Below, in pieces: positions 1,657-8,539 of a stretch of 11,566 bases of DNA. Under the pieces are notes generated by a model. It did not search any database. It was not told the origin of the DNA and saw only the letters and a program-made list of their open reading frames with translations. Source of the stretch: a virus; the UHGV virus genome UHGV-1588268. One strand, 5' to 3'. How positions within the stretch are numbered: the stretch's first letter is position 1; every line of letters starts with the position of its first letter. The translations under genes and the position numbers were made by a program.

Positions 1657-2303
1657 GCAGCACGCTCCCGCCCCTGGTTGTCTGTTGGTGACAGCGGAGC
1701 ATTGCTGAATGCATTTGTTAATCCGCCAATATCCAACGCGTATCCAGGGTGTAGTTGCACTGCCGGGTCTTCGCACTGATTACCCCAAACATCGAAGCCA
1801 TGAGACGTCTGGCGGGCGAACAGTTCAATGCGAGAAACATCGCCTAATAATTGCACAAGTTTTTCACGAACGATATCTGGCTTTCTTGAATGCTCAAGCC
1901 GCGGTGCGGTAAATGACTGAACGATCCCTGCATTAATGCGCGTAGGTAGTTTTCCCTTTACCGCAAACAGGCAATCTTCACTATTGGCGCGAGTCATGTG
2001 TCCCATACCCATAACCAGTTTATCTGGTTGTCGACTACCACATTTTATCCACGTGAAGCCCTTCATCGTCATCAGACGGAATCCCCAGGCTTCAACAACT
2101 TTTAGTGCTTCGAGTGGTTGTGTTGGCACCCACCACATGGCCAACAGACAGTTTTCATCGGCCAAATCCCACACAGGAAGGCGGCAGATATCCAGCACAC
2201 TCATAACCGGATATTTAAAACCGGCACCGCGATTACCATCTGCGGCTTTGTCCCGGTATACCCAGGGTGGATCTGCATAGATTAGTGTGTATTTCTTAGT
2301 CAT
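1653..2303 (-). CDS. MT-A70 family N6-adenine DNA methyltransferase (phage orphan methylase)
   Basis: 216-aa ORF. N-terminus MTKKYTLIYADPPWVY carries the DPPW catalytic motif of MT-A70-type adenine methyltransferases; WGF and FDVWGN motifs further downstream. Confidence 0.85.
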   Translation of the reverse strand: MTKKYTLIYADPPWVYRDKAADGNRGAGFKYPVMSVLDICRLPVWDLADENCLLAMWWVPTQPLEALKVVEAWGFRLMTMKGFTWIKCGSRQPDKLVMGMGHMTRANSEDCLFAVKGKLPTRINAGIVQSFTAPRLEHSRKPDIVREKLVQLLGDVSRIELFARQTSHGFDVWGNQCEDPAVQLHPGYALDIGGLTNAFSNAPLSPTDNQGRERAA

Positions 2304-2595
2304 AAACCACCCCGCAACATCCTATACCGCTATAGTCTCCACGGCGAAGGCCGTTACCTTTTGTGATACATTGGTCCCTGCGAACCGCGATCCTTGCACG
2401 CTCAACATCACCAGAAGCAACATCCATACACTGAAGCCAAAGGTGAGCGGCAATGCGGAACTGCCCTTTTTTCTCTCTTTCAATCGCGCGTTTTTCGATC
2501 TCTATCGCCGCAGGAGTAACGGCGACAATCTTTGACGGACTGCGCATTGAAACCTTATTCATGTGATATTTTTCAAGTCGGCTTAACTTTCTCAC
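2296..2595 (-). CDS. Hypothetical protein (99 aa; start uncertain)
   Basis: ORF overlaps the methyltransferase start by 8 nt. The GTG at 2595 overlaps the upstream stop as GTGA and has a GAGGG ribosome-binding site; internal ATGs are alternative starts. No family recognised. Confidence 0.45.
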   Translation of the reverse strand: MRKLSRLEKYHMNKVSMRSPSKIVAVTPAAIEIEKRAIEREKKGQFRIAAHLWLQCMDVASGDVERARIAVRRDQCITKGNGLRRGDYSGIGCCGVVYD

Positions 2596-2708
2596 TTAAT
2601 CCAACCCTCTCTGAAAATTAATGCCAGCAGATAAAGCCATGCTGAAACAGAGGCCAGGAATAAGTACCATCCTGACCATTTGATCCAGTGCCTTAGCAGC
2701 GCACTCAT
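2592..2708 (-). CDS. Putative small hydrophobic peptide (38 aa), candidate membrane protein
   Basis: Own translation: MSALLRHWIKWSGWYLFLASVSAWLYLLALIFREGWIK. ATG overlaps the alpA stop as ATGA. One predicted transmembrane helix. Below the cutoff of the supplied ORF track. Confidence 0.3.
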   Translation of the reverse strand: MSALLRHWIKWSGWYLFLASVSAWLYLLALIFREGWIK

Positions 2709-2953
2709 GCAGCGTTGCTCACGGGACGATATACACGTTGCTGAACAGGAGGTTTTTTACCCTGGAACTCTGCCGGGCTTGCTGCCTGACGTTCATCAAG
2801 CCAACGCTCAACTTCGTCACGGTTCCATGCGCAGCGTTTGTCAGTGATATACCAGCGTTTAGGAAATTCCCCTGCGCGCTCCATACGGTCGATAGTGCTC
2901 CATGACAGTGGCACCACCGCCAGGAGTTCCTTCTTACCTAATGCACCTTTCAT
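2705..2953 (-). CDS. alpA: AlpA/Xis-family DNA-binding protein (excisionase / prophage regulator)
   Basis: 82 aa; LSWSTIDRMERAGEFPKRWYITDKRCAWNRDEVERWL fits the AlpA/excisionase winged-helix pattern; AGAGAGG ribosome-binding site before the ATG. Confidence 0.8.
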   Translation of the reverse strand: MKGALGKKELLAVVPLSWSTIDRMERAGEFPKRWYITDKRCAWNRDEVERWLDERQAASPAEFQGKKPPVQQRVYRPVSNAA

Positions 2954-3002
2954 AAATACCTCTCTTGGTTGCAGTGCGGCGCGTGTGGCACCGCGGTGGT
3001 GG

Positions 3003-4025
3003 TTACTCGAATTCTGGACGTATATCGTTAAGCGTCATCATGAATTTTTGGTGATATTCATCACCGAGCTTTTCAGCCATGGTGTTAATCTCATTTTCAG
3101 CGCGCTTGAACATCGTTTTTGCATCTTCAGCAGATGGATCCAGGCTATTAAGTATCGCGATGATATATTCTCGAGCTTCTTCTCGTTCTGAATCTGAAAT
3201 TGGCGACAGGTGTTGACGCTCATCGTCAACTACGGAATATTCACCAGTGATAACAGCTGCGTTATCTTGGCTAAGTCCAGCTTCAGCGCGCTCATCCATA
3301 ACAACAGCCTTCTGCATTTCAATAGAAACAGGAAGATATTTGAATAGTCGGCGAATTACTGTTTTTTTAGCCATCTCATCGAAGTGATCAACCCATGGGC
3401 CACTGCTACCGGCTTTGCTCAGTGCACGAACTTTCTCAATGTCTGCCCGGCTCATAACTTCAAATTGGACTCCGCCATCTTTCAGTCGTGCAACGGCGTA
3501 AACGTGCGTTAATTCTCCGCGGTCACCTGTTTCGCAAGGTAAATGCTCGAGCGTTTCTTCCAGGCCGTATGAGTAGCTGAATTTGTCGTTTGTATGTACG
3601 GTACGAGCCGAGATACTCAGGATCTGCCCAGAGCGGCGGGCAAGGTCAATCATTCCGCGATAGCCGATAATCAGCTGTGCTTCTGTAGATACGGTTTCCC
3701 ATCTTCCATTTACTTTCTGGCGTTTGTCGAACGGTATCAGGTAAGCGTGTCCAAGAGCTCCGCCTGGTTCAAGACCCAATTGGGCACATTGCATAATTGC
3801 CCCCAGGAAGCTGGCTTGGTCGCATGATGCAAGTTTTGGAACCTTTCGGATCTCTGTGGTTGCTATGCGCGCCAGACGGTCTGCTGTCATGTGCTTTGGA
3901 AGTGCCAAAGCCATCTGAGCTTTAATTTTTGGGTCTGCCAGAAGTCCGGCCAGAGTTGTTGGTTTCTCATTATGATGTGCAACTTGGTTACCGGTAGCCG
4001 CTGCCTTAAGTGCATTGATAGACAT
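3003..4025 (-). CDS. recT: RecT-family single-strand annealing recombinase
   Basis: 340 aa. Long blocks match Rac RecT as I remember it (RIATTEIRKVP, QCAQLGLEPGGALGHAYLIPF, LIIGYRGMIDLARRSGQI, THVYAVARLKDGGVQFEVMSR, GPWVDHFDEMAKKTVIRRLFKYLPVSIEMQKAV). AAGGAG ribosome-binding site. Confidence 0.92.
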   Translation of the reverse strand: MSINALKAAATGNQVAHHNEKPTTLAGLLADPKIKAQMALALPKHMTADRLARIATTEIRKVPKLASCDQASFLGAIMQCAQLGLEPGGALGHAYLIPFDKRQKVNGRWETVSTEAQLIIGYRGMIDLARRSGQILSISARTVHTNDKFSYSYGLEETLEHLPCETGDRGELTHVYAVARLKDGGVQFEVMSRADIEKVRALSKAGSSGPWVDHFDEMAKKTVIRRLFKYLPVSIEMQKAVVMDERAEAGLSQDNAAVITGEYSVVDDERQHLSPISDSEREEAREYIIAILNSLDPSAEDAKTMFKRAENEINTMAEKLGDEYHQKFMMTLNDIRPEFE

Positions 4026-4034
4026 TTTTTCTCC

Positions 4035-4934
4035 TTACTTCATTCTGAAGACGCGTTGTGTCGTTGTTGTTTTGAATTTTTCGAATAACTCAGGGTGTAC
4101 TGACTGGAATAGCTTCTGGTCGAATCTGTTGCTGATCTGAGATTTCCATGTGCAGAGCGGCTTTCCGTCCAGGGTCAGGACTGAGTGCTCTTGCATGTAC
4201 ATCTTCAGCTTCTCTTCTGATATAGCTATTTCTTCTTCCAGTGATTTTCTGCGTGACTTCATGTCTCGTAGATCGTTGAATAGTGCGAGTGCCTTTCCGT
4301 CAGCCTCGATACTTGTCCCGGCATCTTTCTCAAACATCAGCGATACATCGCTTACGCTGGTAGCTTCCGGCGGGTTAAGATTTTTCACTCGGTCCCAGAA
4401 AGCGATTTCTTTTTCTAAGATCGCCTGGATAGTTTCTTCATCACGCTCAACCCGATAGATTCGGAAGTCGTCGCCACCGATAAGCACACCGAAAACGCAT
4501 ACCTGTTTGTTTGTAACCATCAACCCGTGCATGGCCTGGGCCGTGTAATGCACAGGAATTGCATCTGTCTGGATTTCTCCCCATTCTTTGGCTTTGAACG
4601 GACTAACTGTTTTGATCTCAATGTTCTCGCCTGACGCTGCTTCTGCATCGATCTCAGCTGCAATAAAATCGTAATCACGGTGGATATAGCGGTTTCCGCG
4701 ATGAACGATTTCCATCCCTGTTTCCTCAGAAAGCAGGTCTATTACGTATGGCTCCATACGCTGGCCACGCGTGAAAACTTTCTGCTTGCTTGGGTCTACT
4801 GGTTTGACACGTGGCTGGACCTTATCCAGATAAACCTCAAGCGGGGTGCGCCATGGGCTAATTCCAAGAATCCCTGCAACATCGCTTCCTCCGATGTATT
4901 TTGTTCTATCCATGATTCCAGCGTTCTGCATCAT
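4035..4934 (-). CDS. YqaJ/lambda-Exo-like recombination exonuclease (PD-(D/E)xK)
   Basis: 299 aa. N-terminal DRTKYIGGSDVAGILGISPWRTPLEVY is typical of YqaJ-type phage exonucleases; sits immediately upstream of recT, the usual exo-recT pairing. Start overlaps the upstream stop (ATGA). Confidence 0.85.
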   Translation of the reverse strand: MMQNAGIMDRTKYIGGSDVAGILGISPWRTPLEVYLDKVQPRVKPVDPSKQKVFTRGQRMEPYVIDLLSEETGMEIVHRGNRYIHRDYDFIAAEIDAEAASGENIEIKTVSPFKAKEWGEIQTDAIPVHYTAQAMHGLMVTNKQVCVFGVLIGGDDFRIYRVERDEETIQAILEKEIAFWDRVKNLNPPEATSVSDVSLMFEKDAGTSIEADGKALALFNDLRDMKSRRKSLEEEIAISEEKLKMYMQEHSVLTLDGKPLCTWKSQISNRFDQKLFQSVHPELFEKFKTTTTQRVFRMK

Positions 4935-5385: not shown

Positions 5386-5404
5386 AACTTGTTACCTCGG
5401 TCTG

Positions 5405-5481
5405 TTACCGTTGAGGTAATAATTATGCTTATTTGGTTTGGTGTCAATAGATATGAGTTAAAAAAATTACCCGTAAGGTAA
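5405..5481 (-). promoter_or_regulatory. Putative leftward early promoter with two operator palindromes
   Basis: Minus-strand -35 TTGACA (plus 5443-5448) and an A/T-rich -10 candidate (about 5418-5428), flanked by TTACCg-ttg-AGGTAA (5405-5419) and TTACCc-gta-AGGTAA (5467-5481). Confidence 0.45.
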
Positions 5482-5490
5482 TCTATCTGG

Positions 5491-5538: not shown

Positions 5539-6123
5539 TTATTGTTTGCTTTTTTCGTTCTGGTTGATGACAAATTCAATGTAACTTTCGATCTTTGCTT
5601 TCTCGGTTTCGGGTAACAATGCGTAGCGTGAGCGGTCATAGTTGATAGTCGCAGGGTCGTGCGGGTGAATCAGTAGTTCATATCCGTGACGCCCGAATGC
5701 GGATGCAACATTCTCCAGGGTGGAAATGGAAACGCTGACCTCATTGTTTAACAGGCGGCTGATTGTCACCTGGGCGACGCCGGATGCGCGGTGAAGTTTT
5801 CCCTGTGTTGAAAGGTCGCGGCTTTCGCTCATCCAGCGTTCCAGATTGTGAGCCGCCAGCTGACCTATATCGCTCGGGCCGACAGGCTGAAAACCCTCCT
5901 GAGAAAGCGAACGATCAATATCAAGCCAGTTACGGGGTTTATTGGCGGCAGCTTCAATTTTTCGTGCAACCTGGTCGCCGATAACCTTCTTGCCAAGAGC
6001 CCAGCGGTTTACCAGATTTGCCTGAGTTCCAAGTTTTTCTGCCATCCGCGTCTGAACACCATTGAATTCACGGTCGATCAAGTCGTTGAGATTTTGCCTG
6101 CGGACGTCCTGGATACTTTTCAT
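5539..6123 (-). CDS. Phage repressor candidate: tandem HTH (XRE/Cro-C1 type) DNA-binding protein, no S24 peptidase domain recognised
   Basis: 194 aa. Two HTH-like segments (QTRMAEKLGTQANLVNRWALGKK and KLHRASGVAQVTISRLLNNEVSVSISTLENVA). Divergent from a Cro-like gene with operator palindromes between them. C-terminal 45 aa show no Ala-Gly/Ser-Lys autocleavage signature. Confidence 0.75.
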   Translation of the reverse strand: MKSIQDVRRQNLNDLIDREFNGVQTRMAEKLGTQANLVNRWALGKKVIGDQVARKIEAAANKPRNWLDIDRSLSQEGFQPVGPSDIGQLAAHNLERWMSESRDLSTQGKLHRASGVAQVTISRLLNNEVSVSISTLENVASAFGRHGYELLIHPHDPATINYDRSRYALLPETEKAKIESYIEFVINQNEKSKQ

Positions 6124-6178
6124 TTTCTGGAAAATCGCCTCATATATGAATCAGTAGATGATTCAATTTAAAGCAATA

Positions 6179-6241
6179 TTACCCAACAGGTAAATGCACC
6201 TCATAGGTAACTATCCTTGATTTTTGTTACCTTATGGGTGA
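6179..6241. promoter_or_regulatory. Divergent immunity-region control region with three operator-like sites
   Basis: Sites TTACCc-aac-AGGTAA (6179-6193), gcACCT-cat-AGGTAA (6196-6210), TTACCT-tat-gGGTgA (6227-6241); candidate rightward -35 TTGATT (6217-6222) and -10 GAATAT (6240-6245) overlap the sites. Confidence 0.5.
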
Positions 6242-6277
6242 ATATTTATTATCTGAAATAAATATCAGGCAATAGCT

Positions 6278-6555: not shown

Positions 6556-6563
6556 ATCTATTC

Positions 6564-6578
6564 GTACCTCAAAGGTAA
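6564..6578. promoter_or_regulatory. Operator palindrome gTACCT-caa-AGGTAA between the cro terminator and the replication genes
   Basis: Seen in sequence; same motif family as the immunity-region sites. TTGATCAA (6592-6599) just downstream could be a -35 element. Confidence 0.45.
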
Positions 6579-6656
6579 TAAAAAACCAAATCTGGTTGAT
6601 CAAATTTTCCAATTGTGCAAAATAGCCAATATCAATAACAAAAAGGGGCGGAAAAA

Positions 6657-6869
6657 TTGAAGATAGTAACCAGAATGGAGGCCGCAAAAGCCGGGTTAAA
6701 TCGCTATTTCACAGGAAAGCGGTGCCGTCACGGCCATCTCTCTGAAAGGTATGTTCTGAACGGAACATGTGTTGAATGTGCAATGAATAGCGCCAACCGC
6801 CATCGTAATGAATTTGCTTGTGCACTAAAGAGTGCAAGAGGGGAAACCTATGGCAAGCAGCTGGATTAA
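6657..6869 (+). CDS. Small Zn-ribbon-like protein (70 aa) in the cII position
   Basis: ORF with TTG start and AAGGGG ribosome-binding site (alternative ATG at 6675). Cys/His pattern C-x-H-x-H...C-x-x-C (GKRCRHGHLSERYVLNGTCVEC). Overlaps the start of the O-like gene. No family recognised. Confidence 0.5.
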   Translation: MKIVTRMEAAKAGLNRYFTGKRCRHGHLSERYVLNGTCVECAMNSANRHRNEFACALKSARGETYGKQLD

Positions 6870-7674
6870 GGTTGAAGTTATCACTCCTGATAAACCTGAA
6901 ATTTTTCAGATAGCAGAAATTCTGGGTATTGATCCAGATGCTGTTCTTGGAAAGCTGGTTCGTATATGGGCATGGGCTGACCAGCAAACAATAGACGGTA
7001 ACGCTGGCAGCGTTACAAAAGGAGTACTTGATAGACTCGCTTTTATTACAGGATTTGCTGACGCCCTCATTAGCGTCGGATGGCTTGCTTATCATGACGG
7101 CAAACTAATTCTTCCAAACTTTGAGCGACATAATGGAGAATCATCGAAAAAACGTGCACTTACGAATAGAAGAGTGGCAGAGCATCGAAAACGAGTAACG
7201 CAAAAAGTAACGCCAACAGCGTTACAAAAGGAGTTACCAGAGGAAGAGGAAGATATATATAAAACCCCACACATAGCGCACGTGCGCGAGGGTGCTCCGA
7301 CCAGTGAAGCGAACAGTACGCCGTTGCAGGTGGCAGAACCTGAATTTCTGGATGGCCTGAGTGAACCCATCGGGAAATTTCCGATGACAGATGGCTGGCT
7401 ACCGTCGCCAGATTTTCGGTGGCGTGCTGCGCTGTGGGGAACGGCCCTGCCGGAACCGGAATTTACACCTGCTGAACTTGCTGCATTCCGGGATTACTGG
7501 ATGGCTGAGGGCAAAGTGTTCACGCAGGTTCAGTGGGAACAAAAATTCGCCAGGCACGTAAATCATATCAGGGGAAAATCAAAAAATGCCGGGAAAAGCG
7601 ATGAGCTTGACTGGAATAACACTGACTGGATAGAAGGGGTGTGGGATGAAATCAACTCCAGAACTTCTCAATGA
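6850..7674 (+). CDS. Replication initiator, O-like: N-terminal phage replisome-organizer domain plus C-terminal DnaT-like domain
   Basis: N-terminus MASSWIKVEV...IWAWADQ fits the phage replisome-organizer N-domain. C-terminus (GKFPMTDGWLPSPDFRWRAALWGTALPEPEFTPAELAAFRDYWMAEGKVFTQVQWEQKFARHV) aligns closely with E. coli DnaT as I remember it. AGAGGGGA ribosome-binding site. Confidence 0.8.
   Translation: MASSWIKVEVITPDKPEIFQIAEILGIDPDAVLGKLVRIWAWADQQTIDGNAGSVTKGVLDRLAFITGFADALISVGWLAYHDGKLILPNFERHNGESSKKRALTNRRVAEHRKRVTQKVTPTALQKELPEEEEDIYKTPHIAHVREGAPTSEANSTPLQVAEPEFLDGLSEPIGKFPMTDGWLPSPDFRWRAALWGTALPEPEFTPAELAAFRDYWMAEGKVFTQVQWEQKFARHVNHIRGKSKNAGKSDELDWNNTDWIEGVWDEINSRTSQ
6998..7234. repeat. 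Iteron-like repeats inside the O-like gene (candidate origin): GTAACGC-N5-GCGTTAC-AAAAGGAGT twice
   Basis: Copy 1 at 6998-7025, copy 2 at 7207-7234, plus an extra GTAACGC at 7195-7201 and CATCGAAAA(A)ACG direct repeats at 7143-7196. The two copies fall in different reading frames of the O-like gene. An A/T-rich tract follows at 7243-7262. Confidence 0.4.
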
Positions 7675-8422: not shown

Positions 8423-8459
8423 TACCAGCGCGATAGCGCATTTTTTTACGCCTCGATAA

Positions 8460-8536
8460 TTACCTGTTAGGTAACAAAATATTATAAACTCTATTGATTT
8501 CATGTCTTATGTGGTTTTTAATTACCTCAGAGGTAA
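8460..8536. promoter_or_regulatory. Two perfect operator palindromes flanking a putative promoter upstream of the DUF1064-like gene
   Basis: TTACCT-gtt-AGGTAA (8460-8474) and TTACCT-cag-AGGTAA (8522-8536), the latter ending 3 nt before the ATG and containing the GAGG Shine-Dalgarno; TTGATT -35 candidate at 8494-8499. Confidence 0.5.
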
Positions 8537-8539
8537 ATC

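Follow-up and report, generated by a model that had tools for sequence, protein, structure and literature searches.

A predicted single-helix membrane peptide gene with an embedded mRNA hairpin, conserved between alpA and perC in phiV10/epsilon15-like prophages

In an 11,566-nucleotide stretch of the virus genome UHGV-1588268 (hereafter the window), the recognised alpA and perC genes are separated by 117 bases that are filled exactly by one short open reading frame, raising the question of whether this frame is a gene and, if so, what its product does. The small ORF lies on the minus strand at 2592..2708, with the ATG at 2708..2706 and the TGA at 2594..2592, and comprises 38 codons plus the stop. 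Its 38-residue translation, MSALLRHWIKWSGWYLFLASVSAWLYLLALIFREGWIK, matches exactly the peptide of the original prediction. Directly upstream is an AlpA-like gene (2705..2953, minus strand; 82 aa), an excisionase/regulator assigned by Pfam Phage_AlpA (E=3.1e-5) and PHROG 66 ‘excisionase and transcriptional regulator’ (E=2e-16). Directly downstream is the gene for a PerC-family transcriptional activator (2296..2595, minus strand; 99 aa), which is matched by Pfam PerC (E=6e-7) and by PHROG 868 (E=5.7e-62), the latter aligning over residues 1–99 of 99 from a GTG start. The small ORF is joined to both neighbours by four-base overlaps: the TGA of alpA and the ATG of the small ORF share ATGA (2705..2708, minus strand), and the TGA of the small ORF and the GTG of the PerC-like gene share GTGA (2592..2595, minus strand). 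The overlap with the alpA stop had been predicted correctly, whereas the minus-strand orientation and the second overlap, with perC, had gone unmentioned.

The window derives from a phiV10/epsilon15-like (Uetakevirus) prophage. The 751 bases around the small ORF are 95–100% identical to a prophage in 556 of 5426 complete E. coli genomes, also match phiV10, the O157 typing phages 9 and 10, ZX5 and PAS61, and show 78% identity to Salmonella phage epsilon15. In NZ_CP031215.1, the one E. coli chromosome from which the annotated region was retrieved, the prophage adjoins guaA. The peptide aligns with PHROG 17484 from end to end (residues 1–38 on profile positions 1–38 of 38; E=2.5e-26) and is 97% identical to phiV10 YP_512290.1 and 82% identical to epsilon15 NP_848240.1; the family is represented in UniProt by Q858E3 and Q286Y2. 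A tblastn search recovered it at 100–66% identity in 35 phage records, and a 100% identical protein from phage vB_EcoP_PAS61 is deposited in NCBI and UniProt as ‘membrane protein’. The phage records name the ORF phiV10 gp35 (PhiV10p35), epsilon15 gp32 and Tyrion gp33. The record label of PhiV10p35 reads ‘membrane protein; one C-terminal transmembrane helix predicted; similar to epsilon15p32’, and that of epsilon15 gp32 reads ‘membrane protein’. The order AlpA–peptide–PerC is common to the window, phiV10, epsilon15, Tyrion, the Klebsiella phages and all representative loci. With the same length, 82–100% identity, and the same position and overlaps between AlpA and PerC, the window ORF is a member of this family and differs from it in nothing substantive. 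The sequence matches and gene order indicate that the small ORF is the epsilon15 gp32/phiV10 gp35 gene as carried by an E. coli prophage, a gene that is already catalogued.

The earlier description of the peptide as unannotated is therefore false for phage resources (phiV10, epsilon15, Tyrion and PHROG 17484) and holds only for PGAP-annotated E. coli chromosomes, from which the gene is absent (feature lists of the top 20 matches and one full table). The accompanying expectation that standard bacterial annotation would miss the gene was borne out, PGAP leaving the space empty in the E. coli chromosomes examined. Since PGAP omits the gene, small-protein catalogues built from RefSeq miss it as well.

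Whether the frame is translated into a functional product is decided by conservation. The hydrophobicity of the small ORF is not by itself beyond chance: its best 19-residue Kyte-Doolittle mean is 1.92, which ranks fourth among the 83 ORFs of 30–60 aa in the window. A phmmer search over 1.84 billion cluster representatives returned five true relatives only, so the family is narrow. Alignment-based locus scans together with tblastn yielded about 165 related loci from metagenomes and from phages and prophages of Escherichia, Salmonella, Klebsiella, Enterobacter, Citrobacter, Pseudocitrobacter and Superficieibacter. Nearly all of them carry the small ORF intact, with 38 or 39 codons or, in one Enterobacter clade, 32, and destroyed copies were found at two loci only, one rearranged (L126) and one with a 5' deletion (L155). 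Thirty distinct nucleotide versions encode the 38/39-aa product, all with (A/G)TGA overlaps at both ends, and the flanking genes always encode an 82-aa AlpA and a PerC of 97–101 aa. The alpA junction is ATGA, or GTGA in Klebsiella phages, in 30 of 30 intact variants, and the GTGA at the perC junction is replaced by ATGA in epsilon15, Tyrion, and the Klebsiella, Citrobacter and metagenomic relatives.

Consistent with this conservation, the comparison of related prophages that the original prediction had proposed as a check spoke for the ORF. The frame is kept, and pairwise dN/dS is 0.10–0.53 with dS ranging from 0.3 to saturation. Pooled pN/pS is 0.30–0.35 in the small-ORF frame and 1.15 and 1.47 in the other two frames, the value of 0.30 being comparable to that of alpA (0.22). 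The 32-codon clade, comprising Enterobacter phage BUCT554 and about 40 viral contigs, has codon 33 changed to a stop, G13 to D or E, and W14 to V, and its small-ORF stop no longer overlaps the perC start. Its pooled pN/pS is 0.28 (29 distinct sequences), indicating that the truncated form is still under purifying selection. Being conserved, the small ORF is more than a chance frame, and the substitution pattern indicates that it is a genuine protein-coding gene.

The same comparison bears on the start of perC. The N-terminal KLxxLxKYH motif of PerC is conserved starting from the GTG at the junction, and one PGAP-annotated E. coli record places the PerC start 16 codons too far downstream; the alignments indicate that the start is to be corrected to the GTG overlapping the small-ORF stop. 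An N-terminally extended PerC running through the peptide region, as annotated in Klebsiella phage records, was rejected, since that frame has a pN/pS of 1.47 and contains a TAA stop in E. coli.

Nine closely spaced genes make up the early-left operon, with the peptide gene in sixth place, in the order 50-aa ORF, 104-aa ORF, YqaJ exonuclease, RecT, AlpA/Xis, peptide, PerC, MT-A70 methylase and DUF1382. A consensus scan predicts the early-left promoter on the minus strand at 5447..5419 (TTGACA-17-AATTAT), within 5404..5482, and this is the only sigma-70-like promoter found upstream of the small ORF on that strand. It is flanked by two operator-like palindromes, ATTACC-N5-GGTAAY (5482..5466 and 5420..5404, minus strand), one of which covers the –10 element. 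This palindrome occurs at 8 sites in the window as compared with 0.94 expected, and in the epsilon15 record these palindromes carry the annotation of repressor binding sites. The gene for an HTH_3 repressor (5539..6123) and its terminator lie just upstream of the predicted promoter. The promoter and operators are thus predicted from consensus matches and from the annotation of the epsilon15 record. Nearer the small ORF, the consensus scan, a weak test, found no promoter-like site on either strand within 2200–3100. With repressor operators on both sides of the predicted promoter of the operon, synthesis of the peptide is expected upon prophage induction or infection and not in a quiescent lysogen; expression in the lysogen from an unrecognised promoter is also possible.

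Translation of the peptide is most likely coupled to that of alpA. The calculated Shine-Dalgarno duplex with the 3' end of 16S rRNA is strong for alpA (–8 to –9 kcal/mol; –8.9 in the window). By comparison, that of the small ORF is –1 to –3 kcal/mol in most lineages and –5.7 in one Klebsiella lineage (L005), against a background mean of –2.2. For perC, the duplex energy is –5.6 to –7.7 kcal/mol in 10 of 10 lineages, at about the 5th–10th percentile of the background, and its Shine-Dalgarno-like element, GAGAGGG (2605..2611, minus strand), lies within the peptide codons R33-E34-G35. Since the small ORF lacks a Shine-Dalgarno sequence of its own, ribosomes that terminate alpA translation at the shared ATGA most likely resume on the small ORF, in whose last codons would lie, in turn, the perC ribosome-binding site and overlapping start codon. 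The coupling to the alpA stop that was originally proposed fits both the overlap and the missing Shine-Dalgarno sequence. Four-base overlaps occur at 4 of 7 junctions of the operon, and the coupling therefore reflects ordinary phage gene packing with no special device. We also considered an mRNA structure hiding the small-ORF start; a stem around the ATG is predicted, but was rejected because it lacks covariation (term –0.11) and the fold of the stretch analysed scores no better than shuffled sequences (z=–0.97).

The comparison of the loci brought out an RNA element inside the gene. An mRNA hairpin with an 8-bp stem and a 10-nt loop spans codons 11–19 (2652..2677, minus strand). Its 5' arm, GGUCAGGA (2677–2670), pairs with its 3' arm, UCCUGGCC (2659–2652), bringing codons 11–13 (UGG UCA GGA) together with codons 17–19 (UUC CUG GCC). 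RNAalifold predicts the hairpin independently in two alignments, and the share of paired cells is 96.4% over 48 distinct sequences drawn from the two clades, as compared with 27–44% in slid controls. Pair 14–27 occurs as GC (20), AU (23) or GU (3), and pair 15–26 as UA (24), AU (8), UG (4) or CG (3). In the 32-aa clade, a synonymous change of the Asp13 codon (GAU to GAC) goes with Tyr17 to Cys (UAU to UGU), and U–G intermediates exist; such a pathway through wobble intermediates is typical of RNA pairing and would not be expected of a DNA palindrome. The synonymous sites of the stem are nearly frozen (Ser12 UCA in 30 of 30, Leu18 CUG in 29 of 30 and Ala/Thr19 NCC in 29 of 30), whereas conserved residues outside the stem use several codons, and pS is 0.34 in codons 11–19 versus 0.62 elsewhere. 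The compensatory changes point to a conserved hairpin, a new side finding. The stem also holds 4 of the 11 invariant peptide residues (W11, S12, G13 and L18), and part of the apparent protein conservation is therefore imposed at the RNA level.

Several regulatory identities of the hairpin were rejected. The window holds a single copy, as does the complete phiV10 genome, which speaks against a repeated motif such as a nut/boxB pair; the conserved U-tract that an intrinsic terminator would need is missing downstream; and the hairpin is not exceptionally stable, ranking only in about the top 5% when the operon is divided into 42-nt windows. A further hairpin, predicted for codons 22–30 in relatives, is broken in E. 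coli and shows no covariation. Rfam gave no match at E<=1 to the hairpin or anywhere near the small ORF.

The original prediction of one hydrophobic helix is supported by both the hydropathy profile and the AlphaFold2 model, in which, from the single sequence, residues 3–37 form one helix with a mean pLDDT of 86. The 19-residue hydrophobic core, WYLFLASVSAWLYLLALIF, has a Hessa-scale sum of –0.9. Five of the 38 residues are tryptophan: W8, W11 and W14 lie towards one end, W36 is at the opposite end, and W24, which is invariant, is central. Across eight lineages, the net charge is +1 to +4 in the N-terminal ten residues and –1 to +2 in the C-terminal tail, a tail that the 32-aa clade does not have. 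The peptide is thus predicted to form one transmembrane helix of roughly residues 11–32. Following the positive-inside rule, the short basic N-terminus is probably cytoplasmic and the six C-terminal residues periplasmic, so that the peptide would lie almost wholly within the bilayer. Every lineage preserves its length and hydrophobic character, and conservation is spread all round the helix; a single conserved face marking a binding interface was rejected (helical moment of conservation 0.05, permutation p=0.66). Searches with the peptide gave no family match in Pfam (E<=1), PADLOC or PDB sequences, and sub-threshold noise only in NCBIfam, including AciT at E=0.032. Three divergent members of the peptide family likewise matched no PADLOC defence-system model at E<=10.

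What does such a peptide do? In the literature collection searched, no paper was found that mentions the peptide or tests its function. The explanation we prefer, to which we give about an even chance of being right, is that the epsilon15 gp32/phiV10 gp35 gene encodes an early-operon, single-helix peptide serving as an accessory host-directed factor, with the hairpin as an additional constraint on the same bases. The peptide is most likely a non-essential factor of the inner membrane that acts on the host during lytic development. With almost nothing of it outside the bilayer, it would have to act within the inner membrane, attaching to a membrane protein that is conserved among enterobacteria, much as small inhibitors of division or host physiology do; action as a pore-forming poison seems less likely than such binding. 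Its role would then parallel that of the early-left ‘kil’-type genes, and its form that of intramembrane inhibitors of very small size such as SidA or phage D3 Iap. A conserved host target is expected because the peptide is kept in phages of Escherichia, Salmonella, Klebsiella, Enterobacter and Citrobacter, hosts with different O-antigens. The gene itself appears dispensable, judging from the truncated Enterobacter clade, whose phages are viable, and from the occasional losses.

An unlikely alternative, though the most probable of the rivals we weighed, holds that the ORF mainly serves to carry ribosomes from alpA to perC and to house a regulatory hairpin, its peptide having little or no function. 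The missing Shine-Dalgarno sequence, the four-base overlaps with alpA and with perC, and the placement of the perC ribosome-binding site within the last codons are all as such a relay would have them. So is the hairpin, with its compensatory and wobble-intermediate changes across 48 sequences, its frozen synonymous sites and the most invariant peptide residues in its stem, as well as its persistence in the 32-aa clade despite strong change in the peptide. However, the reading frame of a pure relay would drift towards a pN/pS of 1, and the value observed outside the hairpin is 0.36, the C-tail giving 0.28 and the remainder of the helix 0.34; the protein is therefore also under selection. The constancy of peptide length and hydrophobic character argues in the same direction, as does the 32-aa clade, in which the stop has moved off the perC start and purifying selection (0.28) nevertheless persists.

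We also entertain, doubtfully, a dual-coding form of the host-directed reading, in which the 117 bases would encode a membrane effector together with a hairpin gating the flow of ribosomes from alpA to perC. The hairpin, the ATGA restart without a Shine-Dalgarno sequence and the embedded perC ribosome-binding site would then act together, and, if this is true, the synthesis of the excision protein, the peptide and the activator would be tied in fixed proportion.

Less probable still is a membrane-damaging toxin of the Hok/TisB type, with peptide oligomers in the inner membrane that would dissipate the proton-motive force. Small prophage peptides of the hydrophobic single-helix type are often toxic, and this peptide is small, very hydrophobic and single-helical; its conservation all round the helix is also what might be seen if each helix packs against two neighbours. 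Against these likenesses, neither Hok_Gef nor any other toxin family matched at E<=1, the peptide lacks cysteine and, within its helix, any charged or strongly polar residue, and neither an antisense RNA or Rfam match nor a promoter of its own was found. Transcription of the gene falls early, together with that of genes for recombination and excision, at a stage at which the phage still depends on the cell being energised. The phage has its holin elsewhere, in a lysis cassette (phiV10 p28): the phiV10 holin, endolysin and spanin lie at 25.2–26.6 kb, on the other side of int from the peptide gene. The proposed Hok/Kil-like class was not upheld on these grounds (no Pfam match, cysteine, antisense RNA or own promoter, and a position outside the lysis cassette), and the idea that the peptide works like a small membrane toxin is possible but unsupported.

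We regard as improbable a superinfection-exclusion or immunity peptide that blocks the entry of incoming phage DNA at the inner membrane. The membrane location, the apparent non-essentiality of the gene and the PHROGs category of PHROG 17484, ‘moron, auxiliary metabolic gene and host takeover’, would suit such a role. By comparison, the gene sits in an operator-controlled early operon with no constitutive promoter found, the phiV10 record already assigns superinfection immunity to the O-acetyltransferase Oac, no PADLOC model matches, and the peptide is conserved across hosts with different surface structures and hence is not serotype-linked. Finally, a frame open by accident in an intergenic gap and left untranslated, as the commonness of hydrophobic small ORFs in the window (rank 4 of 83) and the missing PGAP call might suggest, is hardly credible, being effectively refuted by the dN/dS values, the excess of synonymous change specific to this frame and the 32-codon clade, with frame, length and junctions kept across lineages of saturated synonymous divergence.

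About one in ten complete E. coli genomes carries the prophage module with the peptide gene. In the host-directed reading that we prefer, the peptide is one more conserved single-helix phage peptide and a reasonable, not exceptional, candidate for host takeover, and nothing here overturns current understanding. The useful outputs are the evidence for selection on the peptide, the corrected PerC start, the PGAP omission and the embedded hairpin. The last offers a neat small example of RNA and protein constraints on the same bases, in which compensatory changes force amino-acid substitutions (Tyr/Cys17 with the Asp13 codon).

Comparison with known systems places the peptide among small phage and bacterial membrane effectors to different degrees. 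Like Hok/Gef (PF01848), it is a small hydrophobic single helix encoded on a mobile element. It is distinct from Hok/Gef in size (38 aa versus about 50 aa) and in the location of its gene inside a polycistronic early operon, and lacks the sequence match, conserved cysteines, periplasmic domain, Sok-like antisense RNA, mok-type leader and own promoter of that family.

The gene is short, appears dispensable and is predicted to belong to a repressor-controlled early-left operon that also holds genes for recombination and excision, and in this it would resemble the accessory genes for lambda Kil, Rac KilR and DicB. Proteins of the Kil type are soluble, with FtsZ as their target, whereas the peptide is a predicted integral membrane helix with no match to Pfam Lambda_Kil, and the analogy is one of position only. 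Lambda cIII is likewise a small early-left product acting at the inner membrane. It is a membrane-associated FtsH inhibitor with an amphipathic peripheral helix that is not transmembrane, and no Pfam match links the peptide to it.

In phage D3 of Pseudomonas, Iap is a phage-encoded inhibitor of the O-antigen polymerase. Its gene lies beside wzy-beta in a constitutive serotype-conversion unit, whereas the peptide gene belongs to an early operon and adjoins no O-antigen gene. Neither Iap nor Caulobacter SidA shows homology to the peptide; both resemble it in consisting of a single transmembrane helix with almost no soluble part. SidA, which acts on the divisome, and Iap are very small proteins that act by binding a host inner-membrane protein.

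Codons 11–19 of the peptide gene, the 38-codon membrane-peptide ORF, house a conserved mRNA hairpin (2652..2677, minus strand), in which the arms GGUCAGGA and UCCUGGCC form an 8-bp stem closed by a 10-nt loop. Across 48 distinct sequences, both compensatory and wobble-intermediate changes are found in the stem, and synonymous sites are frozen in the hairpin. The hairpin occurs only once in the phage genome, and no match for it was found in Rfam.

In a clade of ~40 loci, the peptide takes a 32-residue version, MTALKKHIGRWSDVYLYLAVVAYLMWLAAVIS, as in Enterobacter phage BUCT554 (1089..1187 of related locus L127) and in loci L128–L168. The shorter version originated from a stop at codon 33, downstream of which remnants of the former tail (E-V-W-I-K) can still be read, and the overlap with the PerC start has been lost. 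Purifying selection nevertheless persists on this version (pN/pS, nonsynonymous versus synonymous variation, of 0.28).

The neighboring alpA is disrupted by stops and an N in the record of phage TL-2011b (L007 1241..1504), and frameshifted AlpA products of 77 and 119 aa, some of them fused to the peptide, are present in public protein sets (P0010, P0016, P0018 and P0019). These versions of alpA probably reflect sequencing errors or represent pseudogenes. Where alpA is disrupted or frameshifted in this way, the peptide ORF stays intact.

On the other side, the stop of the peptide gene is overlapped by a GTG at 2595, which, judged from sequence, is most likely the true start of the PerC-family gene (2296..2595, minus strand). 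The conserved N-terminal KLxxLxKYH motif of PerC runs from this GTG or its equivalent, and every relative examined outside E. coli has ATG at the equivalent position. Annotated starts differ: the NCBI pipeline PGAP and the phiV10 RefSeq record place them 16 and 11 codons downstream of the GTG, respectively, and Klebsiella phage records place theirs upstream of it, in a frame that shows no sign of selection.

Hydrophobicity by itself is weak evidence, as exemplified by MGFYIYLPLPLVTPFVTLLALLFALLVFDALPLFYS (7160..7270, minus strand), the most hydrophobic of the small ORFs in the window, which is probably a chance frame. This ORF lies antisense within a 280-aa plus-strand ORF (6832..7674).

With up to two mismatches tolerated, the palindrome ATTACC-N5-GGTAAY occurs in eight copies in the window versus 0.94 expected. 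Two copies bracket the predicted early-left promoter (5404-5420 and 5466-5482), another two fall between genes on the repressor/cro side (6178-6194 and 6226-6242), and the others are at 150-166, 6563-6579, 8459-8475 and 8521-8537. The annotation of epsilon15 lists the identical motif as the operator of the repressor.

A further, GC-rich palindrome, CACCGCGGTG (2989..2998), is located just 3' of recT, whose stop is at 3003, and ahead of alpA, which starts at 2953. It is followed by no U-tract, and in the epsilon15 record this place carries the label 'stem-loop; transcriptional pausing'. The exonuclease (4035..4934) and RecT (3003..4025), both on the minus strand, are encoded by two separate ORFs (3003..4934), as in epsilon15, whereas the phiV10 RefSeq record contains a single RecE–RecT fusion of 1761 bases (L001 738..2498).
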